DNA of 64,000 bases, taken from positions 40,779 through 104,778 of the forward strand of contig CAZJLO010000002.1 in NCBI GenBank assembly GCA_964547105.1. The letters are read 5' to 3'. This stretch comes from an uncultured Thermotogae bacterium (lineage in GTDB: Bacteria > Bipolaricaulota > Bipolaricaulia > UBA7950 > UBA9294). Positions 12,610-28,853 of this stretch are shown piece after piece. The position numbers and the translations under genes were made by a program. How positions within the stretch are numbered: the first letter of the stretch is position 1; every line of letters starts with the position of its first letter. The notes beneath the pieces are model-generated. The model saw only the letters and a list, made by a program, of their open reading frames with translations, was not told the origin of the DNA and made no database searches.

Positions 12610-12620
12610 GGTCTCCTTCG

Positions 12621-13769
12621 TCACAGGGCCGCCGCCAGCAGCTCGACGACATCGAGTACATCGACCGAGTGCGCGGTACCCGCCCGCTGCTTGGCATCGA
12701 GAAAGGCCGTCTGGCATGCCGGGCAGGCGCTGACGATCGTATCCGCTTCCGTTGCGAGCGCTTCGGCGAAGCGCTCGGCTTCGGTTGTGATCGACAGCTG
12801 TTCGTGGTCGGCACGTACGAACCCGCCGCTACCGCAGCAGAACGATTGCGGGCCGCTGCGCGGCATCTCTCGTCGCTTCACACCGGGGATGGCATCGATC
12901 AGCTGCCGCGGTGGACCAAGGATGCCCAGGGATCGTCCCAGCGTGCAGGGGTCGTGATAGGTGACAAGGCGGCTTTGCCTCTTTAGTCTCAATTCGCGGA
13001 ATGCGGGAAGCTGCGCGAGATACTCAGTGATGTGAACGGCGCGTACAGGGAGGGGGTGTCCTGTCAGCTTGACGTAGTCCTCGCGGAACGTCCGGAGACA
13101 TCCCGGGCAGGCGAAGACCAGCGTCTCGGCACCGGAACGCCGGATACGTTCCAGATTCTCCTCCAGAGCTTGGCGGGCTCGATCGGGCTGTCCCATCGCC
13201 AAGAAGGGATGGCCGCAGCAAGTCTCATCTTCAAGAACGGCAAAATCGACGCCACATGCCTCGAGCAGCTGATAGGTTCCGCGGGCAATTCCCCGCCGCA
13301 GCAGAGACGGGGTGCAACCGACGAAGAAGACGACATCGGCAGTGGTGCCGACACGTTGCGTGCCTGGTAGCCAGGCAAGTCGCTTCGCTTGCGGGCGCCC
13401 GTACGGATTTCCGTTGTCGGCTACGTCTCTTACCAACGATGCCCCTCCCGGAAGAAGGAGGTCGCGCTCGGCAAGATCGGCCTTCATCGCGGCGTAGATG
13501 TCGGTCAGGGAGAGGTACTTGAAGCACTGCGACTCGCACGCGCCACACTCGGTGCAGGCGAAGACACGCTCGGCGACGTCTTGGTTGTAGGAAACAACGC
13601 CGTCGAGCAGGGCGCGGGCGATGGCGATCTTGCCTCGGGCGCCGTAGGATTCCAGCCTATTGTCCGCGTAGGGCGGGCAGATCGATTGTCCGGCGCTTTC
13701 CATGTGGTCAAAGCAGAATCCGCATCGCAAGCAGCTGTAAATCTGGTCCTTGTAGGCTTCGAGGTTCAT
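12621..13769 (-). CDS. Fe-S oxidoreductase with CCG domains (GlcF/heterodisulfide-reductase-like)
   Basis: 382 aa; two 4Fe-4S Cys clusters (CLRCGFCFDHME ; CTECGACESQC) and two CCG motifs (CGSGG, CPGC); ATGA overlap with upstream gene. Confidence 0.75.
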   Translation of the reverse strand: MNLEAYKDQIYSCLRCGFCFDHMESAGQSICPPYADNRLESYGARGKIAIARALLDGVVSYNQDVAERVFACTECGACESQCFKYLSLTDIYAAMKADLAERDLLLPGGASLVRDVADNGNPYGRPQAKRLAWLPGTQRVGTTADVVFFVGCTPSLLRRGIARGTYQLLEACGVDFAVLEDETCCGHPFLAMGQPDRARQALEENLERIRRSGAETLVFACPGCLRTFREDYVKLTGHPLPVRAVHITEYLAQLPAFRELRLKRQSRLVTYHDPCTLGRSLGILGPPRQLIDAIPGVKRREMPRSGPQSFCCGSGGFVRADHEQLSITTEAERFAEALATEADTIVSACPACQTAFLDAKQRAGTAHSVDVLDVVELLAAAL

Positions 13770-15184
13770 CGGGTCTCCTCAGGGACGAGCAGTCCCGGAT
13801 TCAGGGTTCCGTGCGGATCGAGCGTTCGCTTCAGGGTTCGGAGGAGGTCATAGCTGGTTCCCAGCTTAGGCATGATGTGCGGTGCGACGCCGCCTCCAAG
13901 TCCGCCGGGGCTCATCCGGCCCTCGGTGAACATCCGTTCGGCGATCTCGCCTCGTAGCTTCATGCCATACTCCCAGGCGTCGTCCCGGCGCTCATCGTAG
14001 AGGGTATCGATCCACAGATACGCGCCGTTGCGGGAGAAGTACGCATCGACACCCTTGACGCGGATGCCGAATTGCTCGAAGGCTTGCTCTCGTTCATTCT
14101 TCATCTCACGGAACAGGGCGATCGCCTTCTTCAGCCCCTGGGAAGAGATGAAGCCGGCCACTTCTGGACAGAAGTACGGACGATGGCTGTAATAGGGGCC
14201 GGGAGCCGTGTTGCGCAACCAGGAGTACATGTGTTCCTGCCAGTAGTGCTTGGTCCCGTCGGCCGGACGTGCCCGGCCGGCATGCGAGAAGCAGATCGCT
14301 TCCGCCTCTCGAATCCGCTCTCTTGCAGCCGATGCTCGATCTCGGACGATCAGATGAAGGAACGCGTCTCCCTGCTCTCCGGTTGGCTTGGGCCCCCCGA
14401 ACAACCCGACGATAAACGTCGCAGCACCGCTTGCCTGGATGCCGGTCGCAGCATCGATGGCATCCTGATACTCATCGAAGGCAAAGAAACGGAATTCTTC
14501 CGCCTCGGGGATCCGGTGGATGCGATACGTTACGGATGTGATGATACCGAGGATGCCGTACGACCCAATGAACAACCCGGCAAGATCTGCTCCGTTTGCG
14601 TTTCTTTCGATCGGCTCGGACGCGGGATTGGACGCGGAACCCGTATGGATGACGGCACCCGACGGCAAGACGACCTCAAGAGAGAGAACATGATCTCCGG
14701 TCATGCCGTATTCGGTTGCGCCGTGCGGAGTGGCGTTAACGGCCACGGTCCCGCCGATCGTACACGAGAACAGCCCGCCGCCTCCGGGCACGCCGAGTTC
14801 CCAACCACTTCGGTGGAGCTGCCGATCGATGGCGTACCAAATCGCGCCGCACTGTGCGGTGACGTATCCGGCCTCAAGATCGATCTTCGTGATCCCGTTC
14901 ATGCGGGTTGTGTCGAGGACGACAACTCCTTCCTTGACGCCGCTTCCGAGGAACGTGGTTGCACGGCCACGGGTGTGGATCTGGAATCCGAGGTCATTCG
15001 CCAGCCGCACCAAGGAACCGATTTCTTCGGTGCTCCCGGGTTGGACGACCAGAGCGGGGATGCCTGCTCTGTCGGGCCCGCAATCGCGCGAGTAGCAAAC
15101 GCGATCCACGAGGCTGTCCGTCACATGCTCTGCTCCGACGATCTCTGCGAGCTTTCCGCCGAGATTCTCAAGCATATCGTTCAC
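13766..15184 (-). CDS. FAD-linked oxidase (GlcD/D-lactate dehydrogenase family)
   Basis: 472 aa; FAD-binding PCMH domain sequence (ALVVQPGSTEEIGSLVRLANDLGFQIHTRGRATTFLGSG), C-terminal FAD-oxidase domain. Confidence 0.8.
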   Translation of the reverse strand: MNDMLENLGGKLAEIVGAEHVTDSLVDRVCYSRDCGPDRAGIPALVVQPGSTEEIGSLVRLANDLGFQIHTRGRATTFLGSGVKEGVVVLDTTRMNGITKIDLEAGYVTAQCGAIWYAIDRQLHRSGWELGVPGGGGLFSCTIGGTVAVNATPHGATEYGMTGDHVLSLEVVLPSGAVIHTGSASNPASEPIERNANGADLAGLFIGSYGILGIITSVTYRIHRIPEAEEFRFFAFDEYQDAIDAATGIQASGAATFIVGLFGGPKPTGEQGDAFLHLIVRDRASAARERIREAEAICFSHAGRARPADGTKHYWQEHMYSWLRNTAPGPYYSHRPYFCPEVAGFISSQGLKKAIALFREMKNEREQAFEQFGIRVKGVDAYFSRNGAYLWIDTLYDERRDDAWEYGMKLRGEIAERMFTEGRMSPGGLGGGVAPHIMPKLGTSYDLLRTLKRTLDPHGTLNPGLLVPEETR

Positions 15185-16559
15185 CTACTTTCCTGATTTC
15201 TTGAAGAGCCAACGCTTCGTCAATGCAGGTGAGTTCTCGGTCTTGCATGACGAGCCGCCCGTTGATGATGGTTGTGATGACATCGTTCGCCTTGGCGCAG
15301 TACACCAGAGATGCGAACAGGTCGTCGATCCTGTTGGAGAACTGGAGTTGGTGAGCGCCCGTTGTGTCGAGAACGACCAGATCGGCGAGCTTTCCCGGAT
15401 CGATGACGCCGGCATCGATGCCGCATGCTTGGGCGCCGTTCTCCGTGGCGAAGCGGAAGATATCTCGAGCCGTGAGGACCGTCGGGTCTTGCTTGGCGAC
15501 CTTCTGAAGCAGAAGACCGCAGCGCATTTCCTCAAACGGATCGAGTAGATCATTGGATGCTGCACCGTCCGTTCCCAACGTGATCGGAACGCCGGCACGA
15601 TGGAGATCGACGATCGGTGCAATCCCGCTTCCGAGTTTCATGTTGCTTTTGGGGTTGTATGCCACGGCGACATCGCGTGCTGCAGCCAGCCGGATGTCTC
15701 CCTCGGTGAGGTGGACGCCGTGGACGGCAAGAAGCGGGCTCTCGAGAACGCCGAGGTTGTCCAGGCGTGCCAATGGAGTCATACCGACATCCTGCAGCGA
15801 TTGCTCGACCTCCCAAGCAGTCTCCGACACATGGGTTGTGATTCCGAGGTTGTGTACGTGGGCCTGCCTGCCAATCCACGTGAGCAGGTCGTCCGTGCAG
15901 GTAAACGGCGTCGAAGGCGCGAGCATCACGGTCGACAAGGGAGCAACCCTTGGCATTCGGTGCCATCGCTCGATCAGGGCCAACGTGTCGTCCTTTGTCT
16001 GCTCGCGCGAGACGCGAAGTTCTTCGGGAACCCACTTGTCCACCAAGCTCATCGCGGCAACGCCGCGGATCCCGATCTGGTGCCAGGCGTCGATCACGCC
16101 GTCGATATTCATATCCATGTCTACGAAGGAAGTGATGCCGCTGCGGATCATTTCGATGCAGCCAAGAAGCGACCAGAGCGAGGCGATCTCCGTTGCACCA
16201 TCGTTCCAGGCAGCGCGAAGGACGCGCTTGACAAATGGGAATGTCACATCATCGCACCATGCGACCAGCGACAGGTCGTCGCGACGTCCTTTGAGCATTG
16301 ACTGATAGAGGTGGGTGTGGCTGTTGACCAGCCCGGGGATGACCAGCCGGTTGCGACCGTCGATCACGACAAGGTCGTCATCGGGACCGTTGTCGGATCC
16401 GAACGGCCCTTCCCCGACCGAGGAAACCCGCGTGCCTTCAATCAACACATCGACGTCGTGCTCGATTCGGTCGGCATCGCGGATCAGCGTCGAGATGTTC
16501 CTGAGTAGGATTCTCGATTCCGGCTGTCTGCCGGCGGGCAATACGATCCGATCGGTCAT
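15168..16559 (-). CDS. COG0402-type amidohydrolase (cytosine/guanine/MTA-SAH deaminase-like)
   Basis: Start MTDRIVLP at 16559 (ATGA overlap with upstream stop); motifs PGLVNSHTHLYQS, HVSET, AYNPKSNMKLGSG, GTDGAASN. Confidence 0.85.
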   Translation of the reverse strand: MTDRIVLPAGRQPESRILLRNISTLIRDADRIEHDVDVLIEGTRVSSVGEGPFGSDNGPDDDLVVIDGRNRLVIPGLVNSHTHLYQSMLKGRRDDLSLVAWCDDVTFPFVKRVLRAAWNDGATEIASLWSLLGCIEMIRSGITSFVDMDMNIDGVIDAWHQIGIRGVAAMSLVDKWVPEELRVSREQTKDDTLALIERWHRMPRVAPLSTVMLAPSTPFTCTDDLLTWIGRQAHVHNLGITTHVSETAWEVEQSLQDVGMTPLARLDNLGVLESPLLAVHGVHLTEGDIRLAAARDVAVAYNPKSNMKLGSGIAPIVDLHRAGVPITLGTDGAASNDLLDPFEEMRCGLLLQKVAKQDPTVLTARDIFRFATENGAQACGIDAGVIDPGKLADLVVLDTTGAHQLQFSNRIDDLFASLVYCAKANDVITTIINGRLVMQDRELTCIDEALALQEIRKVGERYA

Positions 16560-17713
16560 CTCGTTTCTCCTTGTCCATGACGGAAACCATGTGATTCTCT
16601 GTCGTCGTCTCGAATCCAGGACAGAGCGTGTGTCGCGCAGGCGGAGACACAAAGGCCGCACTGCCGGCACAGTGAACCGACCTCGGAGTCAAACGACGAC
16701 CTGGCTCCGTAAGGGCAGATTTCCACGCAGCGGTTGCAGTGGGTACATACCTCGGGATTCCAGATGAAGGTGAACAGGCGATCGCCCCCGGCATCGGCGG
16801 CAGGCCGTGTGGCGTCGGGAACGATGGCCGCGCCGATGCAGTCGGCGTAGGCATCGAAGCCAAGCTCCTCAAGGCGCAGCGCGAGGCCTTCCGGAAGCGA
16901 TCGGAGCATCGCCAAGCCTCGGAGAAGAGGCGCGGTGCAGACACCGATTGCCGTGGCCCCCGCCATCAGCATCTCCACCGCATCTTCGGCACGCATGACT
17001 CCGCCCGTTCCGATGATCGGGACGGAGCGGGGGAGAACCGCGGACAGGCGGGCAACCAAATGAAGTGCAATCGGGAATAGCGAGCCGCCGGAGAGCCATG
17101 CTGAGACGGAGCCAAGTTGGGGCCGTCGTCTCTCCACATTGATGCGCAGCGCTGGTCCGATGGAATCGGAAGCGGTGATCGCAGCTGCGCCGCGCGCTGC
17201 GCAACGCTGCGCTGCGCCGATCGGATCGCGCCAATTGACGCTGATCTTGGCGATCACCGGGATCTTAACCAGAGTGACGGCCTGCATGACCATTGCTTCG
17301 ATCGCCGCCTCATCGTACGACACGATCTCCAGGGCGTCCGCTCCCGCTTTCTCCAGGCAGGGCGCCAACGCAGCGACATCCGGCGGTGCGAGCCCGACAC
17401 TGGCGATCACGATCGCCCCGGATTCCTTTGCAAGCGGAAGCTCGTGTTCGATCCACGCGGACGCAGACAGCGTCGACCAGCGTTCGGCGTTGAGAAGCGT
17501 GCCGGTTCGCTCCCAGAAGATAGTTGGCGTCGGATCGACGGCTGCGGCCCGGGAGATCGTCTTGGTGACCACGGCCGCTGCTCCGGCTTTGTGCGCGCGG
17601 GCGATCGATTCCCCGTTGTGGGAAAGGGGTCCCGAGGCGAGCAGGAACGGATGGGGCAATTGCAGGGAGCCGATTCGAGTCGTCAGTTTCACGAGAGATC
17701 TCCTTTCTTCCAC
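16556..17713 (-). CDS. dihydroorotate/dihydropyrimidine dehydrogenase-like flavoprotein with C-terminal 2x[4Fe-4S] ferredoxin domain (PreA-like)
   Basis: 385 aa; DHOD class-1 TIM-barrel sequence (LASGPL, IIGTGGV) followed by CTHCNRCVEICP and CRQCGLCVSAC ferredoxin motifs. Confidence 0.8.
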   Translation of the reverse strand: MEERRSLVKLTTRIGSLQLPHPFLLASGPLSHNGESIARAHKAGAAAVVTKTISRAAAVDPTPTIFWERTGTLLNAERWSTLSASAWIEHELPLAKESGAIVIASVGLAPPDVAALAPCLEKAGADALEIVSYDEAAIEAMVMQAVTLVKIPVIAKISVNWRDPIGAAQRCAARGAAAITASDSIGPALRINVERRRPQLGSVSAWLSGGSLFPIALHLVARLSAVLPRSVPIIGTGGVMRAEDAVEMLMAGATAIGVCTAPLLRGLAMLRSLPEGLALRLEELGFDAYADCIGAAIVPDATRPAADAGGDRLFTFIWNPEVCTHCNRCVEICPYGARSSFDSEVGSLCRQCGLCVSACATHALSWIRDDDRESHGFRHGQGETR

Positions 17714-19056
17714 AGCCGAAGAGCCTCGCGTGCGGCGCGGGAGCGGATGTATTCACTGTCCAACGTCCGGACCGTGCCACGCTCCATCAGGATGTTCCCG
17801 CCGACCATTGACAGCACGACATGCGTGCTGTTCCGATAGAGGAGCGTCTGGTCGAGCAGGTTGTCTTCGGTGAGCGGCGTATCCTCGCCTGGAACGACCC
17901 CGATCAGATCGGCCGGTGCGCCGACGGACAGCATGCCGAGTTCGGGCATACCGATTGCGGCGGCGCTCCACGAAGTCGCCATTCTCCATGCAGTCTCCGC
18001 AGGAATCGCGGTGGCATCGCGTTGTGCCGCCTTGTGAAGGAGGAACGCACCGCGCATCACTTCGAATGGATCATTGATGTAGCCGTCCGTGCCCAGCCCC
18101 GGGGTCAGCCCGCGTTCGATCATTCGCGGAACCGGGGCGATGCCTCCTCCGACTTCGCAGTTGCTGAGCGGCATATGTGCGGCCCGGACTCCCTGCTTGG
18201 CAAGAACATCCAACTCATCGCCGTCCACGGCGACAAGCTGCGATGCGAGAACGGATGGGTCCCAGAAAGCGAGCCGGTCGTACCAATGCACGGGGCGAAG
18301 CCCATTTCGTGCAACGCACCACGCCGGTTCATACTCGCTCTCCGAAAGATGCAGCTGGAGGTCGGCGTGAACACTTGCCGCCGATGCCTTTGCCCGGCGC
18401 ACGAATGCTTCGGAACACGTGAAGCTGGTATGGATGCATTGCATCCCGCGGATTCGGGAGTCGCCCCTCGTATCTCGGATGAACCGCTCGTTCTCGGTGA
18501 GGGGCGCATCGCCGCAGGTGGCTCCTGCCCGCTCGGACGCCTCGATCGATAGAATCGCCCGAAGGCCGGCTTGCTCCACGACGGATGCCTCGCTTGCGAG
18601 AATGCCCGCCGGTGCGAATGGCGCCTCTAGAATGTCGCAGAAGGTCGTGAATCCCGAGCGGATCATGGACAGGCAGGCCAGTTCGCAGGCGGCGACGATC
18701 ATCTGTTCATCAAGGAGGTTCTCGACTTTGGGCCACCAGAACGCCTCCAGGAACGAGTCGAATCCCGGTTCCGGCGGAGCGGCGGGGATTCCGTGGGCCA
18801 ACAGCCCGTATGCGTGCATGTGGGCGTTTACGAATCCAGGGCACAGGACAAGATCCCGACAATCGATGTGGTCGGCGTTGGGGAATGTCTCGGCGAGCGT
18901 CTCGTTGGGAGCGATCTCGGTGATTCGCCCGTCGCAAACGACGACACCCCACCCGCGATGAATCGAGAAAGCGGATGAGGAAGTCGGCGTACCGCCTGAT
19001 CCCGATCCCGGTCCCGATGCGATGACCCAGCCGCCGAAAAGAACAAGAGGATTCAC
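17689..19056 (-). CDS. COG0402-type amidohydrolase (SsnA/chlorohydrolase/deaminase-like), second copy
   Basis: 455 aa; CPGFVNAHMHAYG, HLSESEYE, HMPLSNCEVGGG, GLGTDG; ATGA overlap with upstream AOR stop. Confidence 0.85.
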   Translation of the reverse strand: MNPLVLFGGWVIASGPGSGSGGTPTSSSAFSIHRGWGVVVCDGRITEIAPNETLAETFPNADHIDCRDLVLCPGFVNAHMHAYGLLAHGIPAAPPEPGFDSFLEAFWWPKVENLLDEQMIVAACELACLSMIRSGFTTFCDILEAPFAPAGILASEASVVEQAGLRAILSIEASERAGATCGDAPLTENERFIRDTRGDSRIRGMQCIHTSFTCSEAFVRRAKASAASVHADLQLHLSESEYEPAWCVARNGLRPVHWYDRLAFWDPSVLASQLVAVDGDELDVLAKQGVRAAHMPLSNCEVGGGIAPVPRMIERGLTPGLGTDGYINDPFEVMRGAFLLHKAAQRDATAIPAETAWRMATSWSAAAIGMPELGMLSVGAPADLIGVVPGEDTPLTEDNLLDQTLLYRNSTHVVLSMVGGNILMERGTVRTLDSEYIRSRAAREALRLWKKGDLS

Positions 19057-21008
19057 GAGACCTCGCCTCCTGCAAGTGGCTTGCCTGCCGGGCGCCGGCG
19101 GTATCGCTTCAGCTCCGCCTCGACGTCAGCAAGTTTGAGTCTCCGCAGTGTCTCGGGTGTCGGCCAGCCATCCACCTGATCCCACCCGCGCAACGCGTAG
19201 TACTCGGCCAACATCTGCTCGGCATGTGCGATCTCGCCGCGGGCGCCTCGGGAAGGAGATGGTTCCTGCGTGAATCGCCGAGGCAGACGGTCATCGGCGC
19301 GGGAAATCCCGTGGCGGGCGTTGTAGGCACGCATTTGGTTGGTGATGCGCTCGCCTGCCTCGCGGAGTTCAGCTTCGTTAATGTCCCAGCCGGTTGACAA
19401 ACGGAGCCCTTCCGTAAGATCGGGCCAGTAGATCTCGGCCATCACAAATGTTCCGCCGGATTTGCAGACACCGAGGGAATCTACCACGGCCCCGAAGTCC
19501 TCGCCATCTTTCACGAGGAATGGCTTGTGTTTTGTTGCATGGGGATCCGCCATCTCAGGAAGATACGTTGGGCCGTAGCGGCGTGCGACCTCGTCAGGAA
19601 CGCCGGTTTCATCGATGGTTGGGAACGCCTTCAGATGGTCGGCGCCTCGGCTGGCGGTGATGTGGGCCAATCCCATCGACTGCTGTGCCCGACCGTCCTG
19701 TGCGGGGATCTCCATCCCCTTGACGTGCATGGCATATTCGGCGCAATCACCGCCGATGGAAGCGGCCGCTCGTGAAACCCCTTCAGCAAGGAGATCGCCG
19801 AACCCTTCGCGAGCCGCGATCATCCGAATGAGCTTGAGCATGCTCTCCGAGTTGCCCCAGCTAAGATCGAGCCCTTGGGAAACCGAATGCGGCAGCATGT
19901 CGCGCTGCTGTAGTTCCATTGCGAACGAAATGGCGCGCCCGGCGGAAATCGTGTCCATCCCCAGCCGATCGCAGAGATCATTGGCTTCGAGGATCGCTTC
20001 GATGTCGGCGCAACCGACGTTGGAACCGAAGGCGTTGAGCGTCTCGTATTCCAGGCTCGAGACCTCAAGGCCGCTCCTCGGTCCTCGTTCAATGCGGTAG
20101 ACCTTGTCGCAGCGGATCGGGCATGCGTGACAGCCCTCATCTCGCACCCAGTAGCGATTGCGGAGGACCTCGGCGCTGATGGCCGCCGCTTGGTCGAACT
20201 CCCCGTTCTGGAAATTCCGTGTCGGGAATCGCCCGATCTCGTTGGCAAGAAGAACCAAGCTTGCCGTTCCGTATCGGGAGACGGTGGGGAACAGCGGGTT
20301 GGCCCGGATCCGCGCATGCATCGCACGCGCGACTGTGGCGAAGCGCTTGGAGTTGGCCAGCGGGACAGGTCGAGTTCCGCGGATGCAGATTGCCTTGAGC
20401 TTCTTTGAGCCGAGAACGGCACCAAGTCCACACCGCCCGAAACTGCGATTCGGCGATGCCTGGATTGCCGCGAAGCGAATGAGATTCTCTCCAGCGGGTC
20501 CGATTGTGGCGACCTTCATCGCCGGGTCCTCGAACCGGCAACGGATCATTCGCTCTGTTTCCAGCGTGTCATGTCCCCAGAGGTCGTCGGCCGGCTCAAG
20601 CCTCGGGCCGCGACGGTCGATGCAGAGCAAGGTTGGAGATGGGGCAATGCCTCGGATGGCAATCATGTCGTAGCCGGCGCGTTTCAGCTCAGGTCCGAAG
20701 AAGCCGCCAGCATTGGAGTCGCCGTAGATCCCGGTCAGCGGCGACTTGGCGATCGCCTCGGTGCGTCCCGAACAGGGCCAACCCGTTCCCACGAGCGGAC
20801 CGGTGGCAATCACCAGCCAAGCGTCGGCGGACAAGGGGTCGATCTCGGCGCCGACGTGATCCCACAACCAGCGGACGCCGAACCCGTTGCCGCCCAACCA
20901 GGACCTAGCGAACGCTCCGTCCAAGACGCGTGTGCGAACGGTCCCGGCGGAAAGATCGACTTCAAGCCATGCCCCCATGTAGCCACCAGCGATTGCGTTC
21001 GATGTCAT
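19053..21008 (-). CDS. tungsten-type aldehyde:ferredoxin oxidoreductase (AOR) family protein 1
   Basis: Likely start MTSNAIAGGYMGAWLEVDLSAGTV (ATG 21008, ATGA overlap with upstream AOR stop); AOR N-domain (DPLS..LVIATGPLVGT..SGR..AKSPLTG..DSNAGGFFGPELK), DEGCHACPIRC 4Fe-4S ligands, EYE..NAFGSN, C-terminal LPRRF.. Confidence 0.9.
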   Translation of the reverse strand: MTSNAIAGGYMGAWLEVDLSAGTVRTRVLDGAFARSWLGGNGFGVRWLWDHVGAEIDPLSADAWLVIATGPLVGTGWPCSGRTEAIAKSPLTGIYGDSNAGGFFGPELKRAGYDMIAIRGIAPSPTLLCIDRRGPRLEPADDLWGHDTLETERMIRCRFEDPAMKVATIGPAGENLIRFAAIQASPNRSFGRCGLGAVLGSKKLKAICIRGTRPVPLANSKRFATVARAMHARIRANPLFPTVSRYGTASLVLLANEIGRFPTRNFQNGEFDQAAAISAEVLRNRYWVRDEGCHACPIRCDKVYRIERGPRSGLEVSSLEYETLNAFGSNVGCADIEAILEANDLCDRLGMDTISAGRAISFAMELQQRDMLPHSVSQGLDLSWGNSESMLKLIRMIAAREGFGDLLAEGVSRAAASIGGDCAEYAMHVKGMEIPAQDGRAQQSMGLAHITASRGADHLKAFPTIDETGVPDEVARRYGPTYLPEMADPHATKHKPFLVKDGEDFGAVVDSLGVCKSGGTFVMAEIYWPDLTEGLRLSTGWDINEAELREAGERITNQMRAYNARHGISRADDRLPRRFTQEPSPSRGARGEIAHAEQMLAEYYALRGWDQVDGWPTPETLRRLKLADVEAELKRYRRRPAGKPLAGGEVS

Positions 21009-22903
21009 CCGTCTTCCCCTTGTCCCGGCAGGTCCAGTCGCGCCAACGTTGTCTCGGTCGGCAGGCCGTCGCGCGTCCAACCGCGAAGGCCGTAGTAGGT
21101 TTGGAGCATGGCCGGCAGATCGTGGATTCTTGGTTGTGGCGCTGAAACGGACCGTTCCCGGAGAACTTGCTCGGATTGATGGAGTGGAAGCGAATCCTCA
21201 ACGAATCGCCTTGGGAGGGTGTCGTCCGCTGATCGGAGCCCATGCTGGACGTTGATCCAGCGCTCGAGATTGACAATCCGCTCCCCGACTGTGAGAAGAT
21301 CACTCGCCGACATCGGCAATCCCAGCGATGACAGCGCCAGCGCGATGTCCGTCGGGAGAATGGCGTACGTTTCGGTTGTTGTGAACTTGCAGACGCCGAG
21401 AGCGTCGGAAACAGCACAGTACTCCTCGGAGAACTTCAGAAGGCTCGGCTTGGAGGTTTCGTCCCACGGGTCGAGTACGGATGGAAGCAGGTCGGGAAGG
21501 ATTTTCTTGACGACCGTCTCATTGTTGGTGAGCTCGATGGTCGGGAGGCCGTACAGGTGATCAGCGCCTCGATTGGACGTCGCATGCCCGAGGCCGAACG
21601 CCTTGGCCACACGTGGCTCCTGGCAAGGGATCTCAAGGCCCTTCACATGCATTGCGAGATCGAGGGCATCGCCGCCGATCCGTTCCGCCGCACATCGCGT
21701 TCCTTGGCCGAGCAATGCTCCAAGACCGCGCTGCGATGCTATCTGCTCGATCAATTCAAGGATTGCGGCCGGATTGCCCCAGGTGAGGTCAACCGTTGGA
21801 TCATCGAGCAGCCCGCGTTCGTGGCACTCCATCGCGAATGAGATGGCGCCGCCGACGGAGATGGTGTCGAGCCCCAGCTGGTTGCAGCGAGCATTGGCAT
21901 GGACGATTGCCTCCGCGTCGGAGCAGAAACAGTTGGGGCCGAGCGCGTCGATCGACTCATATTCGGGGCCGGCGCTTCGGCACTGATGAGGTCCTGTCCC
22001 GACTTCTGAGATGCGGCCGCACCGAATCGAACAACCCTGGCAGCCTTTGGTTTGGGATCGGAAAGGCTCAAATGCGCCGGCATCAACCCGATCGACAAAC
22101 GGGACTTGCCCCAACCGGTGGTTCTTCGTCGGAAGATCGCCGACGACATTCTTGATCGCCACCAGGTAGGGCGTTCCCCATTGGGCAAGCGACGAAACAC
22201 CGGGGTTGTCGGCGACAGCACGGTGGGCTGCGCTCGCTAACGATACGAACCGGCGTGGCCAGCGCAGCGTATCCCCCGATACCGTTACAATCGCCTTGAG
22301 CCGTTTGTGACCGAGAACCGCGCCTCCGCCGCAACGCGCCGCGGCGCGTCCACCGTCGATCAGAATTCCGGCCATCGGGACACCACGTTCGCCGGCGGGA
22401 CCGATGCAGGCGACCGAAGCGGAGGCAGGTCTCACTTGATCAAGGAGGCGTGCCTCAGCGACATCCGAGTCCATCCCCCACACAAACGACGCGTCGCAAA
22501 GGACGGCGGTCCCATCTTCTACGCGCAGGTAGACCGGATCGTGGGCCCGCCCGGCGATGGCCAGTGCGGCGATGCCTTGGGACGCGAGCCGATGGGCGAG
22601 GGCTCCTCCGGCATTGGCGTAGCCGTAGATCTCCGTTAGCGGAGATCTGAAACCAAAGTGAACCCGCGAAGACGACGGCCACGGGCTGGCGGACAGAAGC
22701 CCCGGTGCGACAATAAACGGGGCTTCGGGGGAACACGGGGCAATCTCCCAGATGTGGGCGTCGGCAAGAAGCCGCGCCGCCAACCCTCGACCGCCAAGAT
22801 ACGAAGAGCGGTAGGACGATGGCAGGACGGAACGGGTGATGGAGCGCGTTTCGAGGTCGACACAGAGCATGAAGGAAGGAAGGGGAGCGCTAGGGTTAGG
22901 CAT
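21005..22903 (-). CDS. tungsten-type aldehyde:ferredoxin oxidoreductase (AOR) family protein 2
   Basis: 632 aa; same AOR architecture (CQGCSIRC, EYESIDALGPN, LPRRFVED); alternative start MLCVDLETRS at 22870; the two AORs are clearly divergent paralogs, not a recent duplicate. Confidence 0.85.
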   Translation of the reverse strand: MPNPSAPLPSFMLCVDLETRSITRSVLPSSYRSSYLGGRGLAARLLADAHIWEIAPCSPEAPFIVAPGLLSASPWPSSSRVHFGFRSPLTEIYGYANAGGALAHRLASQGIAALAIAGRAHDPVYLRVEDGTAVLCDASFVWGMDSDVAEARLLDQVRPASASVACIGPAGERGVPMAGILIDGGRAAARCGGGAVLGHKRLKAIVTVSGDTLRWPRRFVSLASAAHRAVADNPGVSSLAQWGTPYLVAIKNVVGDLPTKNHRLGQVPFVDRVDAGAFEPFRSQTKGCQGCSIRCGRISEVGTGPHQCRSAGPEYESIDALGPNCFCSDAEAIVHANARCNQLGLDTISVGGAISFAMECHERGLLDDPTVDLTWGNPAAILELIEQIASQRGLGALLGQGTRCAAERIGGDALDLAMHVKGLEIPCQEPRVAKAFGLGHATSNRGADHLYGLPTIELTNNETVVKKILPDLLPSVLDPWDETSKPSLLKFSEEYCAVSDALGVCKFTTTETYAILPTDIALALSSLGLPMSASDLLTVGERIVNLERWINVQHGLRSADDTLPRRFVEDSLPLHQSEQVLRERSVSAPQPRIHDLPAMLQTYYGLRGWTRDGLPTETTLARLDLPGQGEDG

Positions 22904-23918
22904 GGTCTTGTCCTCTTCGGGATCGAGCCGAATCGCTTGTCCAAGCTGTTATGAGGATCCGCGGATCAATGGCTCCGGCGTGGGCAACGGAGCCGGTTGT
23001 CTCATCATTCACAGTGATCTGGGCAATCTTGTTGAGGTGGGTCAGATCGGGGATCGCCTCGAAGACGCCACCGGCGGCTTCGAGCAACTCGGCGAAGAGG
23101 TGCCCGTAGTGTCGGCAAGAACGAAAAACCAACTGATCCGCGATCTTCGAGACGTGCAACCCGGGAGGCAGCCGAAGCGAGATCGTTGCGCATCCGGCGT
23201 AGTGGATGAAGTCGTCGGCGAGGAGTCGGGGCGCCACGGTCTGTCCCAGGCGGGCAATCGAGGGAGCGATCGGAACGGATCCGGTGATGTGCGACACGCA
23301 GGCGGCATCCATCCCGAGGCTCTCCTGTAGCGTAAACAGGACACTTTCGTTGCCGCGTCCTGCGATCTGCGCCGAGCCAGCGGGACTGCCAGGCGGGACG
23401 GCGATGAGCACGAGATCAGCGGCGGCGACCCTGGCCCGGGCGGCGATCGCCTTCACGACAGCGGGGGATGGTCTCGTTTCCGTCTCGATCACCGCTGTTC
23501 GCCAGCTGCGGGCGAGATCGCCACGATTCGCGGGTGAGGTAGCGAACGCGGCGCGAATCGGGCCGGACACGCGAACCGCATCGTCGACTTCGGAGAGGGG
23601 AAGCGAAAGCTGCAGCCCCAGTGCGGAGCGGACTGGAAGCCAGGAATCGACGATCATTCTCGGGAGAACCCAGCCGTCGAGGTCCGTCGTATCGAGCCGG
23701 GCCATCGCCATCCCGCCGTGGCAGATTTCGACGAGTCTTCGGCCGGCTTCCCAGGATCCCGGCGCATCAATGCCACAGTCGATGATCATCGGAGCGGAAG
23801 GAGCAGTTGAGATGTCGACCCCAAGCAATGGGGCATCGGCGCGCAGCGCATCCAGCAGAAGCTCAAGCCGTGGGGCAGCCTCAACAAGCATCTGCCTGCT
23901 CCAGGTGACGTCTCTCAA
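22896..23918 (-). CDS. mch: methenyltetrahydromethanopterin cyclohydrolase (Mch) family protein
   Basis: 340 aa; IIDCGIDAPGSWEAGRRLVEICHGGMA, GSVPIAPS, ITVNDETTGSVAHAGAIDPRIL closely parallel Mch signature blocks as I recall them. Confidence 0.75.
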   Translation of the reverse strand: MRDVTWSRQMLVEAAPRLELLLDALRADAPLLGVDISTAPSAPMIIDCGIDAPGSWEAGRRLVEICHGGMAMARLDTTDLDGWVLPRMIVDSWLPVRSALGLQLSLPLSEVDDAVRVSGPIRAAFATSPANRGDLARSWRTAVIETETRPSPAVVKAIAARARVAAADLVLIAVPPGSPAGSAQIAGRGNESVLFTLQESLGMDAACVSHITGSVPIAPSIARLGQTVAPRLLADDFIHYAGCATISLRLPPGLHVSKIADQLVFRSCRHYGHLFAELLEAAGGVFEAIPDLTHLNKIAQITVNDETTGSVAHAGAIDPRILITAWTSDSARSRRGQDHA

Positions 23919-23969: not shown

Positions 23970-24884
23970 CTACGTGACGATAAGATCCTTCAGGGGGAGA
24001 CGGCGGTTTCCCCATTGCCCGCCAAATGACGGTGCTGTAATCGCGACGATGCCGGGGGTGGCACAGAACGCGTTGATGGCGACGCGAAGACCGTTGCGGA
24101 TTGCCTTGTCCGAAATGGCGACGAGCGGGAATTCGATGACGGCGGCGGCCGCATCAGGGATCTGCGTCTTGACATCGGGGCGATTGCGCAGGGAGGGGCA
24201 GAAGGGCTCGTTGATTGTGACTCCTTCTTCCTTGTAGACGAGCCCGCCAACCTTTGCCCCGCTGATTCCGCCGATGGGGTAGTTGAAAATGGCCACGCCG
24301 ACAACATCGGACAGAACACGGCGGGCCGCTTCTTGGGCCGCCGCAACACAGCAGGTTGCGTTCTCGCCGAAGACTTCCAGAACGCCGTCGGTACCGATGC
24401 AAACGCCCACCTCGCGCTCGATCAGCTGATCCCCGGTCATGATCGGCAGCCGGATGATGTCGCGTCTGCCGAGCTTCTCCGGTGTCTCATATCCGTCTCC
24501 CCACATGGCCACACGGGTCGCGACATCGATCGATCGGATCGACTGTCCGTTCGGTGTGGCGTCGAACAGCGAGCATGTCGGCAAATGCGGGAACAGGTAG
24601 AGCCGGTCGAGAAGAGCAGCGAGGAACGCATCCAACCCTAACGGAGTCGGCGCATTGAGCTGGATCCAAACGCCGGGACGCCCGTCGGGTGTGTGATCTG
24701 GAGAGACTGGACCCTCCACGCAGCCCTGGATTGGGGCGGCGGTGATGATGCTCCAACCGCATAGGTAGCTGGCTTCCGCCAAGGCGACCGATTCCGAAAT
24801 TGCAGTCACCAGCATTCGCGCAATATAGACATCCGTGCACTCACAGACTACGTCGGCGATTGTTGTTCCACGGTATTTCATCAA
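23970..24884 (-). CDS. ftr: formylmethanofuran:tetrahydromethanopterin formyltransferase (Ftr/FhcD) family protein
   Basis: 304 aa; ARMLVTA.., HTPDGRPGVWIQ, C-terminal GIVAITAPSFGGQWGNRRLPLKDLI parallel Ftr conserved blocks (TPDGRPG ; GVVAITAGNYGGKLG..FPL..LL). Confidence 0.8.
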   Translation of the reverse strand: MMKYRGTTIADVVCECTDVYIARMLVTAISESVALAEASYLCGWSIITAAPIQGCVEGPVSPDHTPDGRPGVWIQLNAPTPLGLDAFLAALLDRLYLFPHLPTCSLFDATPNGQSIRSIDVATRVAMWGDGYETPEKLGRRDIIRLPIMTGDQLIEREVGVCIGTDGVLEVFGENATCCVAAAQEAARRVLSDVVGVAIFNYPIGGISGAKVGGLVYKEEGVTINEPFCPSLRNRPDVKTQIPDAAAAVIEFPLVAISDKAIRNGLRVAINAFCATPGIVAITAPSFGGQWGNRRLPLKDLIVT

Positions 24885-24919: not shown

Positions 24920-25990
24920 TCAGAGAAGCTGGGATGCCTCCCCAGGCCGTGAACCCGGCGTGTGCAGCACGCGCAACGCATTGCAGCGCAGCTTCAAGGC
25001 GACGGATTCTCCAAATGCCAGCTGCCGCACACCATTTCCATCGAGGACGAGCACCGCGGAGGGATCCAGCCCGCCGACGGAAATGGTGTCATCGGGGCCG
25101 AAACAGACGTGGTACAAGTGAAGCGGTTCGACATCGGCCAGGATCTGGTCATCGACTTGTGTACGAATTGCAACGTCGCTGATTCCGGCGAGGACCGCGG
25201 GACGGCCGAGGTACGGTCCCCAAGACATCAGACCGCTCACTGCTTTCCCGGCGTAGACCGAGCACTCATCGAGATTGAGCGGCGAAGCGACGATCTGTGC
25301 CAAACGGTGAAGTTTCCCGTCAATCACCGTCCGGCCGTTCTTCTCGACGAACGTCGTCTCCCGGCAGACCGATCTTGGTTTGGTCGAGCGGTCCTCCCCC
25401 CGCAGGTGCGCTGCGGCATCCAGATCGACTCGCCTTCCGCTCCTTGTTCCGAAGTACAAGTTGCTGAACGCTACGTCGTTGAATGCGATCCCTAGACGGA
25501 CGCCGTCGCAGAACGCCTCGATTCCGTGGACGCTTGCCACGTCAAGTTCGGCTAGTCTTTCAGCTGTCAACGCGGTGCCGTGGACACGAATCAGCGGACC
25601 GACGTTCGATGAACCGACTCCGATTCCCAGCAGGGGAATCGGGCGTCCGCTGTCGATAATCACGGAGGCGATGTCAGCAAGGGTTCCATCGCCGCCGATG
25701 CCGATGAGGGCGTCGACACCCGCGGCGAGCAGCGACCGGGCGGCGGAGCCGGCGCTGGGAACGGACTCAAGCGTAGATCCCTTCACCAGCTCAACCTGCG
25801 CTGCATCCGTTGAGGCGGCTGCGCGGGCCGAGAATCCGCCGCGAAGCAACACGATCCGCCAACTCGACCTGGCGCGGGCAACGGCATCGACAGCACGGCA
25901 CACCGTTTCGCGTACGACATCTTCTCCCGCCCCCGCCTTCGGGTTGGCGACAACGCCGACTCGAGCGTGAGGAAGAACCCAAGGCGTCAT
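24920..25990 (-). CDS. ATP-NAD kinase / diacylglycerol-kinase-fold protein of unknown specificity
   Basis: 356 aa; GVVANPKAG and GIGGDGTLAD (GGDGT) catalytic motifs; lacks the full NAD-kinase NxGxLGFL/GSTAY pattern, so substrate unclear; ATGA overlap with upstream permease. Confidence 0.5.
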   Translation of the reverse strand: MTPWVLPHARVGVVANPKAGAGEDVVRETVCRAVDAVARARSSWRIVLLRGGFSARAAASTDAAQVELVKGSTLESVPSAGSAARSLLAAGVDALIGIGGDGTLADIASVIIDSGRPIPLLGIGVGSSNVGPLIRVHGTALTAERLAELDVASVHGIEAFCDGVRLGIAFNDVAFSNLYFGTRSGRRVDLDAAAHLRGEDRSTKPRSVCRETTFVEKNGRTVIDGKLHRLAQIVASPLNLDECSVYAGKAVSGLMSWGPYLGRPAVLAGISDVAIRTQVDDQILADVEPLHLYHVCFGPDDTISVGGLDPSAVLVLDGNGVRQLAFGESVALKLRCNALRVLHTPGSRPGEASQLL

Positions 25991-26814
25991 TTGACGGCGC
26001 CTCCCGTGAGTCCCGAAACCAAGTAGCGCTGGCCAAGCATGAACAAGATCAGCACTGGAAGGGACACCAACAAGGCAGCAGCGCTAAGCGGCCCCCATTG
26101 GACGACGCCGCCGGAGCCGATAAAGCGGGCAAGATACACCGGCAACGTGTAGTGGGCATTGTCGCGCATGATGACCAGCGCGAAGAAGAACTCGTTCCAG
26201 GAGAGAAGAAGCGAGAACGTTCCGACGGCAAGAAGCCCGGGAACCGATAGCGGGAGGACGATCTTCACGAGCGAGCGGATCCGTGTGCAGCCGTCGATCT
26301 GCGCCGCTTCCTCGAGAGCGTAGGGGATCTTGTCGAAGTACCCTTTCAGCAGCCAGACGCTGAACGGCATGCTGAACGTTGTGTGCATGATGATCAGGCC
26401 GAACAGCGTGTTGACAAGCCCGTATACGGAAAGCACGGTGAACAGGCCGAGCACCATGATAATGCCGGGGAACGCCTGGGTGGCCAAGAGCCAGATCGAG
26501 AATACCGTCCTACCCCTGAACTTGTAGCGGGACAGGGCGTAGCTTGCCGGCGCGGAGACACAGGCGGACAAGACAATCGTCGAGAAGGCAACGATCACGG
26601 TATTTCGAAGATTGACGAAGAACGTCGTATTGAACAGCACCTCGCGAAAGTTGTCGAGCGTTGGAGCAAGCGGAATGCCCATCGGAGATCCGAAGATTTC
26701 GACATCCGACTTCAGCGCGTTGAACACGAGAAGAAGAACCGGAAACGCAAGCGCCAACACAAACACGAATACGGCAACATTGAGGAGAATTTGCTTGACT
26801 GGATGCATCCTCAT
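25987..26814 (-). CDS. carbohydrate ABC transporter permease (CUT1, MalG/AraQ-type)
   Basis: 275 aa; 6 TM, EAA loop (ALEEAAQIDGCTRIRSLVKIVLP). Confidence 0.85.
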   Translation of the reverse strand: MRMHPVKQILLNVAVFVFVLALAFPVLLLVFNALKSDVEIFGSPMGIPLAPTLDNFREVLFNTTFFVNLRNTVIVAFSTIVLSACVSAPASYALSRYKFRGRTVFSIWLLATQAFPGIIMVLGLFTVLSVYGLVNTLFGLIIMHTTFSMPFSVWLLKGYFDKIPYALEEAAQIDGCTRIRSLVKIVLPLSVPGLLAVGTFSLLLSWNEFFFALVIMRDNAHYTLPVYLARFIGSGGVVQWGPLSAAALLVSLPVLILFMLGQRYLVSGLTGGAVK

Positions 26815-27704
26815 TCCAGCACCTCCCGGATGTAGAACACGACCACCAACAGGAGCACACAGAGGATGATCAGCCCGATCGCGGCGCCATAGCCGGCCTG
26901 GTAGTACATGAACGCGTTCTGGTAGGCGTACAGAGGCAGTGTAATCGAGGCGCTGCCGGGTCCGCCTTTCGTAAGAACGAAAACGATGTCGAACATGTTG
27001 AAAGTCCAGATCGATTCCAAGGTGAGAATGATCAAGATCACCTTCTTCATGCTTGGCATGATCACGCGGAATTGGGATTGGAAGTGGCCGGCGCCGTCGA
27101 TCGAGGCCGCTTCGAGAACCTGCTTGTCAAGCGCTTGCAGTCCGGCGAGCAGCATGATCGTCACAAAGGGAATTCCCATCCAGATATTGGCGATGATGCA
27201 CGTCCAGAGCGCAAGCTGGGGATCACTCAACCAGCTCGGCGGATTGGCGACTCCCACTCCGCGGAGCACGGTGTTGATGGGGCCGTTGGGCAGGAAAATG
27301 TAGCGCCAGATCAGTGAAACCACCGTTCCAGGGAGCGCCCAGGGGATCAGCGTGATTGTGCGGTAGAACCGGCGTCCCCGCAGGTACTGCGAGTTCAGCA
27401 TGGTGGCCAGGATATACGAGAAGAAGAACATCCCCCCGACGCTTGTCACCGTCCAAACAAGGCTGTTGGAGAAACCTCGAAAGAAGGTCCCATCCTGGAA
27501 CAGCAGGATGAAGTTCTCCCATCCGACGAAGACGTTTTCCTGAGCCAGCGCCCTGTACGCATAGAACACTTTGGATATTCCCTGAGCCAGGGGGTACAGG
27601 CTTACGCCGCAGAGCACGATGAGCGCCGGCATCAGAAACGGAAGCGCCTGTCGTTCCGCGCGGAATCTCTGTGTCGGCGGAATCGGTCTCGTCCTAGTGA
27701 CCAT
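26811..27704 (-). CDS. carbohydrate ABC transporter permease (CUT1, MalF/UgpA-type)
   Basis: 297 aa; EAA loop (VLEAASIDGAGHFQSQFRVIMP), 4-nt overlap with downstream permease. Confidence 0.85.
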   Translation of the reverse strand: MVTRTRPIPPTQRFRAERQALPFLMPALIVLCGVSLYPLAQGISKVFYAYRALAQENVFVGWENFILLFQDGTFFRGFSNSLVWTVTSVGGMFFFSYILATMLNSQYLRGRRFYRTITLIPWALPGTVVSLIWRYIFLPNGPINTVLRGVGVANPPSWLSDPQLALWTCIIANIWMGIPFVTIMLLAGLQALDKQVLEAASIDGAGHFQSQFRVIMPSMKKVILIILTLESIWTFNMFDIVFVLTKGGPGSASITLPLYAYQNAFMYYQAGYGAAIGLIILCVLLLVVVFYIREVLE

Positions 27705-28746: not shown

Positions 28747-28853
28747 CGGTTCACCCACTCCGGTTCCACTTGTGCTGCAACAGGCTGTCTGAGATGAGAT
28801 GCAGCAGGAATGGGGGGCGGGCGAGCCGCCCCCCTTCCCATGGTTCGGTACCC

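Follow-up and report, generated by a model that had tools for sequence, protein, structure and literature searches.

Two AOR-family genes in tandem

The stretch of DNA considered here (the window) comprises 64,000 nucleotides of contig CAZJLO010000002.1 (forward-strand positions 40,779 to 104,778; assembly GCA_964547105.1) from an uncultured bacterium deposited under Thermotogae and placed by GTDB in the Bipolaricaulota; its nearest named relatives are Candidatus Bipolaricaulota metagenome-assembled genomes (MAGs). Two adjacent genes within it, AOR1 and AOR2, encode proteins of the aldehyde oxidoreductase (AOR), or tungsten oxidoreductase (WOR), family, both publicly annotated as 'aldehyde ferredoxin oxidoreductase family protein'. 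The two share 39% identity across 630 aa, and their genes are part of a run of about 23 on the same strand that extends over ~27 kb, from 37598 down to 10347 (Table 1). A first-pass annotation, made from the letters of the window alone, had described two complete AOR-family open reading frames (ORFs) at this place, and this description was borne out: both domains of the family are present in both proteins, as are the CxxCxxxC motif with its fourth cysteine, EYE, GxN and LPRRF.

The start of AOR1 is overlapped by 8 nt by the Mch-like gene, and AOR1 and AOR2 share the stop-start junction ATGA. The same overlap had been claimed for AOR2 and the downstream amidohydrolase gene; that junction is GTGA, and the amidohydrolase, AmhA, starts with GTG. 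The minus-strand ORF that holds AOR2 extends over 19053-21080 and yields a protein of 651 aa when read from the ATG at 21008. The public gene call (P0154, 641 aa) starts 10 codons further downstream, at an internal ATG at 20978, and so loses the 4-nt overlap. The overlapping start appears better supported, because residues 9-11 of the resulting N-terminus align with residues 3-5 of PfAOR and because the gene calls of relatives also use 4-nt overlaps. The tandem pair is far beyond chance, since hundreds of homologues exist and an identical gene order is found on independent contigs.

Each protein is matched along its whole length by the two Pfam domains of the family (AOR1: AFOR_N, E 4e-57, 194 bits, and AFOR_C, E 6e-111, 372 bits; AOR2: AFOR_N, E 2e-69, 234 bits, and AFOR_C, E 1e-129, 434 bits). 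The four cysteine ligands of the [4Fe-4S] cluster (Cys288, 291, 295 and 494 in PfAOR numbering, which is used throughout) are all kept in both proteins and in the dominant signatures of both of their clades. The pterin- and Mg-binding residues Arg76, Asn93, Arg182, Asp343 and Asp489 and the two DxxGL[CD]x motifs are likewise complete. Position 338 of AOR1 is Asn, as in the bacterial AORs 9mqx, 8c0z and 9g7j, and Thr243, Glu313 and His448 are kept in AOR1 and AOR2. By these residues, each protein should hold a bis-pyranopterin metal cofactor and one [4Fe-4S] cluster; the metal would, by family, be tungsten.

An AlphaFold model of AOR1 (pLDDT 83, pTM 0.90) has the three-domain AOR fold. Foldseek aligned it to 9mqx, 9g7j and 1aor with a TM-score of 0.87, at 30-34% identity in the structural alignments, and to BamB with a TM-score of 0.79. 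The best solved-structure matches of AOR1 were to AORs (316-324 bits) and that of AOR2 was to 1aor (431 bits). The closest solved structures were the broad-spectrum AORs 1aor, 9mqx, 8c0z and 9g7j, followed at progressively lower scores by FOR, WOR83, WOR5 and BamB. The NCBIfam equivalog model for AOR (PRK09849) gave 120 bits for AOR1 and 230 bits for AOR2, against a cut-off of 868.

Two named subfamilies were considered and rejected. The scores with the glyceraldehyde-3-phosphate:ferredoxin oxidoreductase (GAPOR) model NF040818 were 27 and 30 bits against a cut-off of 1300, which rules out GAPOR membership. Membership of the BamB/YdhV group was rejected on the lack of a cysteine equivalent to the metal ligand Cys322 of BamB or Cys336 of YdhV; Cys336 lies in a segment inserted in YdhV that AOR1, AOR2 and PfAOR do not have.

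Clades A1 and A2 and their active sites

The AOR-like ORFs of 100 related loci were aligned with E. coli YdhV and five solved-structure sequences, and a neighbour-joining tree with 100 bootstraps was rooted on YdhV; the references in this tree are few, and GAPOR, WOR4, WOR5 and BamB are not among them. At positions 427, 447 and 450, where typical bacterial AORs have Tyr, Cys and Arg, 42 sequences including AOR1 have Gln, Asp and Tyr (clade A1), and 36 including AOR2 have Gln, Asp and Lys or Arg (clade A2). A1 was monophyletic in 100/100 bootstraps and A2 in 86/100. A1 is the sister of A2 plus two further sequences, and A1 and A2 group apart from the branch that holds PfAOR, AaAorB, 9mqx, 9g7j and FOR. 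When the sequences of the family were clustered at 50%, A1 accounted for a handful of ~1,900 strong representatives.

The residues conserved in both clades that differ from AOR sensu stricto (as defined in PMC12096430 and PMC13328260) are L406A, Y427Q, Y439H, C447D and Q482E; Tyr452 is also replaced in both, by Leu in A1 and by Phe in A2. The signature of AOR1 is Gln427, His439, Asp447, Tyr450, Leu452 and Glu482, with Tyr at 450 replacing Lys, and that of AOR2 is Gln427, His439, Asp447, Lys450, Phe452 and Glu482. Gln427 was present in 42/42 A1 and 36/36 A2 sequences, position 427 being itself part of the definition of the groups. Thr243, Glu313, Tyr427 and His448 form the conserved second shell of the aldehyde-oxidising AORs, and a change of Tyr427 goes with lost activity in WOR4 and with a new activity in ASOR (PMC12096430). 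Three of these four residues are kept in AOR1 and AOR2, and Tyr427 is lost.

By sequence, AOR1 and AOR2 are members of two uncharacterised sister clades of the AOR (WOR) family, and they would fall outside AOR sensu stricto on three counts: their grouping in the tree, the loss of Tyr427 and their scores with the orthologue model. Tight clustering of both proteins with characterised broad-specificity AORs had been named in the first-pass annotation as an outcome that would undo its reading; in the neighbour-joining tree both are placed elsewhere, in separate sister clades.

A conserved module and its neighbours

Related loci were obtained by look-ups of AOR1 and AOR2 homologues, by a scan of a genome collection with the Mch-like clade and by a metagenome scan with clade A1, and were mapped by tblastn with the window proteins and the E. 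coli ygeW-xdhD proteins. Among these, 23 well-flanked, de-duplicated A1 loci were counted, nine of Bipolaricaulota type and 14 others; the organism names of MAG bins may be wrong. The most frequent companion of A1 was AmhA, at 22/23 loci (9/9 Bipolaricaulota-type, 13/14 other). A2 and a PydA/YgfK-like reductase, the type to which DHOD of the window belongs, were each found at 20/23 (9/9 and 11/14 in both cases), and a hydantoinase at 8/23 (0/9 and 8/14). Either A2 or a xanthine dehydrogenase-like (Xdh-like) gene accompanied A1 at 13/14 of the loci that are not of Bipolaricaulota type. The conserved unit is AOR1-AOR2-AmhA-DHOD, often with a hydantoinase. It is found, both with and without Ftr- and Mch-like genes, in MAGs from Bipolaricaulota, Chloroflexota and elsewhere. 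The proposed link of the pair to heterocycle-type amidohydrolases is borne out by the 22 loci with an AmhA-like gene, and the co-conservation, the separation of the clades and the altered second-shell residues together make it plausible that the substrate is a non-standard one, as had been suggested.

The whole operon is kept in the Bipolaricaulota-type loci, where AOR1-AOR2-AmhA-DHOD usually lies between the Mch-like gene and AmhB. At L015 and L016 the AOR pair is placed after PfkB, and at L007-L010 the Ftr- and Mch-like genes are followed directly by AmhB. The arrangement in Chloroflexota MAGs (L101-L106) is AOR1-[hydantoinase]-polyferredoxin-AOR2-[ThiS-like]-AmhA-DHOD, with neither Ftr- nor Mch-like genes, and at L103 and L104 the module stands alone as A1-ferredoxin-A2-ThiS-AmhA-DHOD. 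A small ThiS/MoaD-like gene directly follows AOR2 at L103-L106 and both AORs at L110, and one homologue (P0272, 730 aa) is a ThiS-AOR fusion. These genes fit the 'WorX' partner in cofactor maturation that has been described for Class I WORs. Neither a tungstate transporter nor MoaD or Fwd-type genes were found among the annotated ORFs of the window, in which many of the longest ORFs at 40-64 kb lack a Pfam match and are possibly in the wrong frame. The check for tungstate transport and MoaD-like genes recommended with the first-pass annotation thus came out negative in the window and positive, for a ThiS/MoaD-like gene beside AOR2, in the Chloroflexota relatives.

AmhA gave 201-216 bits with the SsnA models of NCBIfam, below their cut-offs (TIGR03314, IPR017700: 201 against 455.5), is 26% identical to E. 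coli SsnA and has deaminase-type amidohydrolases as its solved-structure matches. The identity and the sub-cut-off scores rule it out as a true SsnA orthologue. DHOD is the neighbour of AmhA in the window and at the majority of related loci, and at some loci a YgfK-like gene is found in addition. It scored 115 bits with the NCBIfam PreA model across residues 10-361, its solved-structure matches are class 1B dihydroorotate dehydrogenase (DHODH 1B) and dihydropyrimidine dehydrogenase (DPD), and its predicted architecture matches that of the PreA/PydA/UacX-like ring reductases. The hydantoinase of the window, Hyd, is 37% identical to E. coli HyuA and reached 376 bits with the dihydropyrimidinase model (cut-off 393); it is encoded on the opposite strand here, and its homologue lies between AOR1 and AOR2 in other lineages.

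At six loci an Xdh-like gene directly follows A1, and A2 was not seen there. All three CoxM/S/L-type subunits (FAD, 2Fe-2S and molybdenum cofactor) were confirmed with Pfam at L039, L040 and L044. PnrA-type nucleoside ABC transporters are encoded at L043 and L044, and UbiD decarboxylases at L105 and L109. At L040 (8507-15637) and L039 (975-6333) a complete CoxM/CoxS/CoxL-type molybdenum hydroxylase is encoded after an A1 AOR, and the rest of the module is absent from the vicinity; a phage-type integrase gene lies just upstream at L040.

Table 1. Genes of the AOR1/AOR2 run and of the converging strand, in window coordinates
Feature	Position	Strand	Description	Basis
LacI-family regulator	36591-37598	(-)	upstream end of run	
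DeoC/LacD-family aldolase	35833-36621	(-)		
SBP_bac_1	34439-35725	(-)		
Two permeases	32653-33480, 33477-34364	(-)		
Calcineurin-like phosphoesterase	30789-32519	(-)		Pfam
SBP_bac_1	29495-30826	(-)		Pfam
Small Oxidored_molyb-domain protein	28854-29396	(-)		Pfam
Zn-ADH	27694-28887	(-)		Pfam
Two ABC permeases	25987-27704	(-)		Pfam
NADK/DAGK-like kinase	24920-25990	(-)	356 aa	Pfam
Ftr-like	23970-24884	(-)		Pfam FTR + FTR_C
Mch-like	22896-23918	(-)	directly upstream of AOR1	Pfam MCH, 149 bits
AOR1	21005-22903	(-)	632 aa, ATG start; AOR/WOR-family catalytic subunit, clade A1	Pfam, structure matches, tree
AOR2	19053-21008	(-)	651 aa; AOR/WOR-family catalytic subunit, clade A2	Pfam, junction sequence, tree
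AmhA	17689-19056	(-)	COG0402-type metal amidohydrolase, distantly SsnA-like; GTG start	Pfam Amidohydro_1
DHOD	16556-17713	(-)	DHO_dh (FMN) domain and C-terminal 2x[4Fe-4S] ferredoxin domain	Pfam DHO_dh + Fer4
AmhB	15168-16670	(-)	second COG0402 amidohydrolase, nucleoside/base deaminase type	Pfam, NCBIfam
GlcD-like	13766-15184	(-)	FAD_binding_4 protein	Pfam, NCBIfam
GlcF-like	12621-13769	(-)	Fer4_8/CCG protein	Pfam, NCBIfam
ADP-ribosylglycohydrolase-family protein	11287-12717	(-)		Pfam
PfkB	10347-11369	(-)	ribokinase-like	Pfam; NCBIfam ribokinase, 265 bits (cut-off 300)
AMP ligase	7151-8812	(+)	acyl/malonyl-CoA-synthetase-like; converges on operon	Pfam, NCBIfam
Hyd	8809-10350	(+)	dihydropyrimidinase/hydantoinase; overlaps ligase by 4 nt	Pfam, NCBIfam

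The true start of AmhB is probably near 16562, the relatives of this protein being 442-464 aa long, and the GlcD/GlcF-like pair travels with AmhB in the gene maps. The ADP-ribosylglycohydrolase-family protein and PfkB are likely to form a riboside-cleavage and ribose-salvage end of the operon; this pair presumably corresponds in kind to the uncharacterised yegU-yegV pair of E. coli, which stands next to a nucleoside transporter gene. The gene order upstream of the Ftr-like gene (24920-32519) is the same in L001, L004, L005, L011 and others. A promoter and terminator scan over 9.5-29.4 kb found no more sites than in shuffled sequence and was uninformative on the boundaries of the operon.

Some of the smaller genes of the run are also constant. 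In all Bipolaricaulota-type loci the small Oxidored_molyb protein (~180 aa; a weak, sulfite-oxidase-type match) is encoded between the genes for the substrate-binding protein and Zn-ADH, and L022 has two copies ahead of AOR1 (at about 1800-2900); it may be a second pterin-related component. The 356-aa kinase-like protein precedes the Ftr-like protein in every Bipolaricaulota locus, and has weak NAD-kinase/DAGK matches and no solved-structure relative; one gene call (L004) shows it as a fusion with a permease. At 40000-64000 of the window, about half of the long ORFs have no Pfam match and some may be wrong-strand artefacts of high GC; an ArsP-type permease, flavin reductase-like proteins, a GntR regulator, an adenylate-cyclase/TPR protein and an EamA transporter are recognisable there.

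The Ftr-like and Mch-like proteins both match known structures over their full length (1m5h at 137 bits and 1qlm at 94 bits, respectively), and both score below the NCBIfam equivalog cut-offs (159 against 292.6 and 123 against 228.8). An R-x-x-E segment of the Mch-like protein, aligned to 'SARVVE' of 1qlm, is invariant in its clade. Close homologues of the two were found only in the nine Bipolaricaulota-type loci of the 23. More distant members are encoded near the module elsewhere: an Ftr homologue with an aldo-keto reductase at L031, L038 and L110; a strong MCH match (271-291 bits, like canonical MCH, the window copy being divergent at 149 bits) with a luciferase-like (Mer-family) protein at L030 (4135-7133) and L042 (7848-9879); and a weaker Mch-like match beside an ORF of similar size at L047. 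Ftr-like and Mch-like genes also occur singly. The link to Ftr and Mch drawn in the first-pass annotation is therefore real, in that it holds in all Bipolaricaulota-type loci and, through distant members, at the six other loci named; it is neither universal nor positionally fixed, as the shifts at L015 and L016 and the absence from the Chloroflexota loci L101-L106 show. Such homologues, in bacteria not known to use methanopterin, are found beside the AOR module among sugar kinases, Zn-ADH and aldo-keto reductases. Surrounded as they are by genes for sugar kinases, dehydrogenases and amidohydrolases, they would seem to serve a recruited function rather than the cycling of a C1 carrier.

A candidate role in N-heterocycle catabolism

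A set of enzymes comparable to this module is known from the reductive uric-acid (2,8-dioxopurine) pathway. There, a xanthine-dehydrogenase-family enzyme dehydroxylates urate; dearomatisation of the product falls to YgfK (in C. difficile, to the PF01180-type UacX) and works only in coupling with the amidohydrolase SsnA; and HyuA, YgeW/UacY, YgeY and YgeX complete the route (10.1101/2025.05.19.654654, 10.1101/2025.04.24.650524). A second molybdenum hydroxylase, xanthine dehydrogenase (XDH), feeds hypoxanthine and xanthine into the pathway, so that one of its two hydroxylases works oxidatively (XDH) and the other, 2,8-dioxopurine dehydrogenase (DOPDH), reductively (10.1101/2025.05.19.654654, 10.1101/2025.04.24.650524).

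By analogy with this pathway, it is proposed that AOR1 and AOR2 supply the redox steps of a conserved catabolic module whose substrate would be a nucleobase-type N-heterocycle, most likely a purine-like one, and that they would act as tungsten-dependent ring hydroxylases and dehydroxylases in a purine-like riboside pathway. The probability of this reading is put at about 0.4; like the other functional readings considered below, it rests on genomic context and sequence. The phosphoesterase, ADP-ribosylglycohydrolase-family protein, ribokinase-like kinase, DeoC-family aldolase and LacI-type regulator encoded in the operon suggest uptake of the substrate in the form of a nucleoside- or nucleotide-like compound, and the deaminase-type amidohydrolases of the operon were counted as further support for riboside handling; in this organism it is probably imported as a riboside. 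The ABC system would take up the compound, the phosphoesterase, ADP-ribosylglycohydrolase-family and ribokinase enzymes would remove phosphate and ribose, and AmhB would deaminate the base. The AOR paralogues would then hydroxylate and/or dehydroxylate ring carbons, the job of the molybdenum- and selenium-dependent XDH and 2,8-dioxopurine dehydrogenase in the published pathway. Electrons would pass between the [4Fe-4S] clusters of the AORs and either ferredoxin or the ferredoxin domain of DHOD, the PydA/UacX-like reductase. DHOD would dearomatise the ring, and AmhA and then the hydantoinase would open the reduced ring hydrolytically.

Ring-carbon hydroxylation by AOR1 and AOR2 is chemically plausible by analogy. 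The xanthine oxidase family carries out both the oxidation of aldehydes to acids and the hydroxylation of amidine C-H bonds, and the AOR family also runs the reverse reduction of acids to aldehydes at low potential. In its most specific form the proposal would make AOR1 and AOR2 the first AOR-family hydroxylases/dehydroxylases of heteroaromatic ring carbons: a tungsten-dependent, selenium-independent, redox-coupled counterpart of XDH and DOPDH through which Bipolaricaulota, Chloroflexota and other uncultured anaerobes would channel purine-like bases to reductive cleavage of the ring, with the recruited Ftr/Mch-type proteins of the Bipolaricaulota handling the formyl or amidine carbon of the same substrate. 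So complete a version is doubtful. Methanopterin or another pterin, flavin or F420, NAD and nicotinate-type compounds were also considered as substrates, as was a reversed IMP-cyclohydrolase/transformylase-like role for the Ftr- and Mch-like proteins.

Several observations weigh against a ring-hydroxylating role. The loci were seeded with A1-type sequence patterns, so the constancy of A1 is partly built in. AmhA scores equally well on deaminase models and shares only 26% of its residues with SsnA. Homologues of XdhD, YgfK, YgeW, YgeX, YgeY and YqeA were not found in the window by tblastn, and the downstream route must therefore differ from the published one; YgeX and YqeA were not seen in the tblastn map of any related locus. 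No purine, xanthine, molybdenum cofactor or other riboswitch came up when the window and 13 related loci were scanned with Rfam. Aldehyde oxidases also belong to the Xdh family, so that A2 or Xdh as a neighbour of A1 is compatible with hydroxylase and aldehyde chemistry alike. The 146 family representatives nearest to AOR1 include 53 with His, 39 with Tyr and 15 with Gln at position 427; this position is variable among uncharacterised members, and Y427Q is therefore a clade marker and no proof of a new reaction.

The remaining objections also speak for the main competing reading, tentative though credible, in which AOR1 and AOR2 are pathway-specific aldehyde:ferredoxin oxidoreductases whose low-potential electrons pass to the ferredoxin-dependent ring reductase; this is the aldehyde/acid pair acting on a ring-opened intermediate that the first-pass annotation had put forward. 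The characterised clades of the family oxidise aldehydes (PMC13328260, PMC12096430), BamB and the first step of ASOR being the exceptions, and the core catalytic triad Thr243/Glu313/His448 is retained in both proteins. Aldehyde intermediates are also hinted at by the genes nearby: a DeoC/LacD aldolase is encoded in the operon, a malonyl-CoA-synthetase-like ligase is co-transcribed with the hydantoinase, the GlcD/GlcF-like pair could process a 2-hydroxy acid further, and an Fe-ADH gene adjoins the AORs at L043 and L109. Possible substrates would be malonate- or methylmalonate-semialdehyde-type or 2-formylglutarate-type compounds set free once the ring has been reduced and opened, or acetaldehyde, glyceraldehyde-3-phosphate or glycolaldehyde released from a sugar by the DeoC-family aldolase. 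However, the minimal module of L103 and L104 contains no aldolase, aminotransferase or other aldehyde-generating enzyme, and the tight partners of the AORs are AmhA and the reductase rather than DeoC or GlcD/F. Both clades also lack Tyr427 and Tyr452 and have acquired Asp, His, Glu and Gln close to the metal site, and the published reductive purine route yields no aldehyde.

Chance placement in the operon of ordinary, broad-specificity detoxifying AORs would agree with the public annotation and with the identity of the closest solved structures, and is nevertheless very improbable given a gene context conserved across phyla, separate clades with an active-site signature of their own and AOR equivalog scores of 120 and 230 against 868. 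A low-potential, BamB-like dearomatisation of the heterocycle by one or both AORs, complementing or replacing the flavin reductase, has a family precedent in the aromatic ring reduction by BamB, and the ferredoxin-type partners, including the WorS-like polyferredoxin of the Chloroflexota loci, would suit it. It is improbable all the same: the cysteine ligand of BamB and YdhV has no equivalent, the BamB matches (130-200 bits, TM-score 0.79) are well below the 316-431 bits reached with AORs, and the module already has a dedicated PydA/YgfK-like dearomatising reductase. Least probable of all is the oxidation of a formyl carrier through the Ftr- and Mch-like proteins in place of formylmethanofuran dehydrogenase, the more speculative option of the first-pass annotation. 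The directly upstream Ftr- and Mch-like genes, the overlap of the latter with the AOR1 start, the conservation of this arrangement in Bipolaricaulota-type loci and the distant Ftr/Mch-family genes near the module at L030, L031, L038, L042, L047 and L110 would fit such a role. The module nevertheless lacks Ftr and Mch in Chloroflexota and at many other loci, and the two parts are separated at L015/L016 and at L007-L010; Ftr-like and Mch-like genes occur singly, and those of the window score below their orthologue cut-offs. No Fwd/Fhc subunit was found among the annotated ORFs of the window, and the constant partners are instead an amidohydrolase and a PydA-like reductase, which argues against this option.

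A physiological role has been defined for only 5 of 92 tungsten oxidoreductase clades (PMC13328260). Two further clades gain a concrete and testable context from the present analysis, in which AOR1 and AOR2 belong to a known enzyme family and the clades and module context are new. If the proposed action on an N-heterocycle is correct, it would widen the reaction repertoire of tungsten enzymes, and abundant phyla of the subsurface would have a way into anaerobic nucleobase degradation that needs neither molybdenum nor selenium. Necromass is the presumed food source of Bipolaricaulota and Chloroflexota. The Ftr and Mch homologues of bacteria not known to use methanopterin would likewise gain a first functional lead. 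Should AOR1 and AOR2 turn out to be aldehyde oxidoreductases, the catabolic pathway defined by the conserved module would still be an undescribed one. No connection of AOR/WOR enzymes with purine, hydantoinase or amidohydrolase contexts was found in literature searches; neither of the 2025 preprints on uric acid mentions tungsten or AOR enzymes, and the 2026 classification of tungsten oxidoreductases mentions neither purines nor amidohydrolases.

Compared with AOR sensu stricto (1AOR, 9mqx, 9g7j and AaAorB, 8c0z; WOR clade 87), AOR1 and AOR2 have the same Pfam domains, fold, cysteine ligands, pterin/Mg residues and Thr243/Glu313/His448. They differ in Tyr427Gln, Tyr439His, Cys447Asp, Gln482Glu and Tyr452Leu/Phe, and in forming a pair inside a heterocycle-catabolic module rather than standing alone. 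The window has no small subunit, in keeping with 'Class I' WORs; the Chloroflexota relatives have a WorS-like polyferredoxin and a ThiS-like WorX. BamB and YdhV share the family, and BamB provides a case in which the substrate is not an aldehyde, but the similarity is much lower and the window holds no BamC-I or YdhWXYU-type genes. The neighbours in the window resemble the Ftr and Mch of the Ftr/Mch/Fwd-Fhc C1 module of methanogens and methylotrophs over their full length, without Fwd/Fhc subunits or other genes of the tetrahydromethanopterin (H4MPT) pathway in the window.

A parallel in enzyme content exists with the uric-acid cluster (E. coli ygeW-xdhD and the C. difficile UacX variant). In the window, as in that cluster, a DHO_dh-type Fe-S flavoreductase adjoins a COG0402 amidohydrolase and a putative HyuA-like hydantoinase (37% identity) is encoded, and related A1 loci carry genes for YgfK-like, XdhD-like, YgeW-like carbamoyltransferase and YgeY-like M20 peptidase proteins. 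The window differs in that AmhA is not an SsnA orthologue and in its additional riboside-handling, Ftr-like, Mch-like and GlcD/F-like genes; the match, as an analogy, is one of enzyme logic and not of orthology. With respect to the selenium- and molybdenum-dependent hydroxylases of the XDH family (XDH; XdhD/XdhAC), the AORs are unrelated in protein family and cofactor (Mo-MCD/Se against W-bis-pyranopterin), and the equivalence is by context: the XDH-family enzymes hold the corresponding place in their gene module, beside a YgfK/UacX-type reductase, an SsnA-type amidohydrolase and a hydantoinase. Clostridial members of the XDH family use ferredoxin-type electron partners rather than NAD(P)H, and the need for two enzymes, one oxidative and one reductive, as in XDH and 2,8-dioxopurine dehydrogenase, matches the pair of AOR paralogues.

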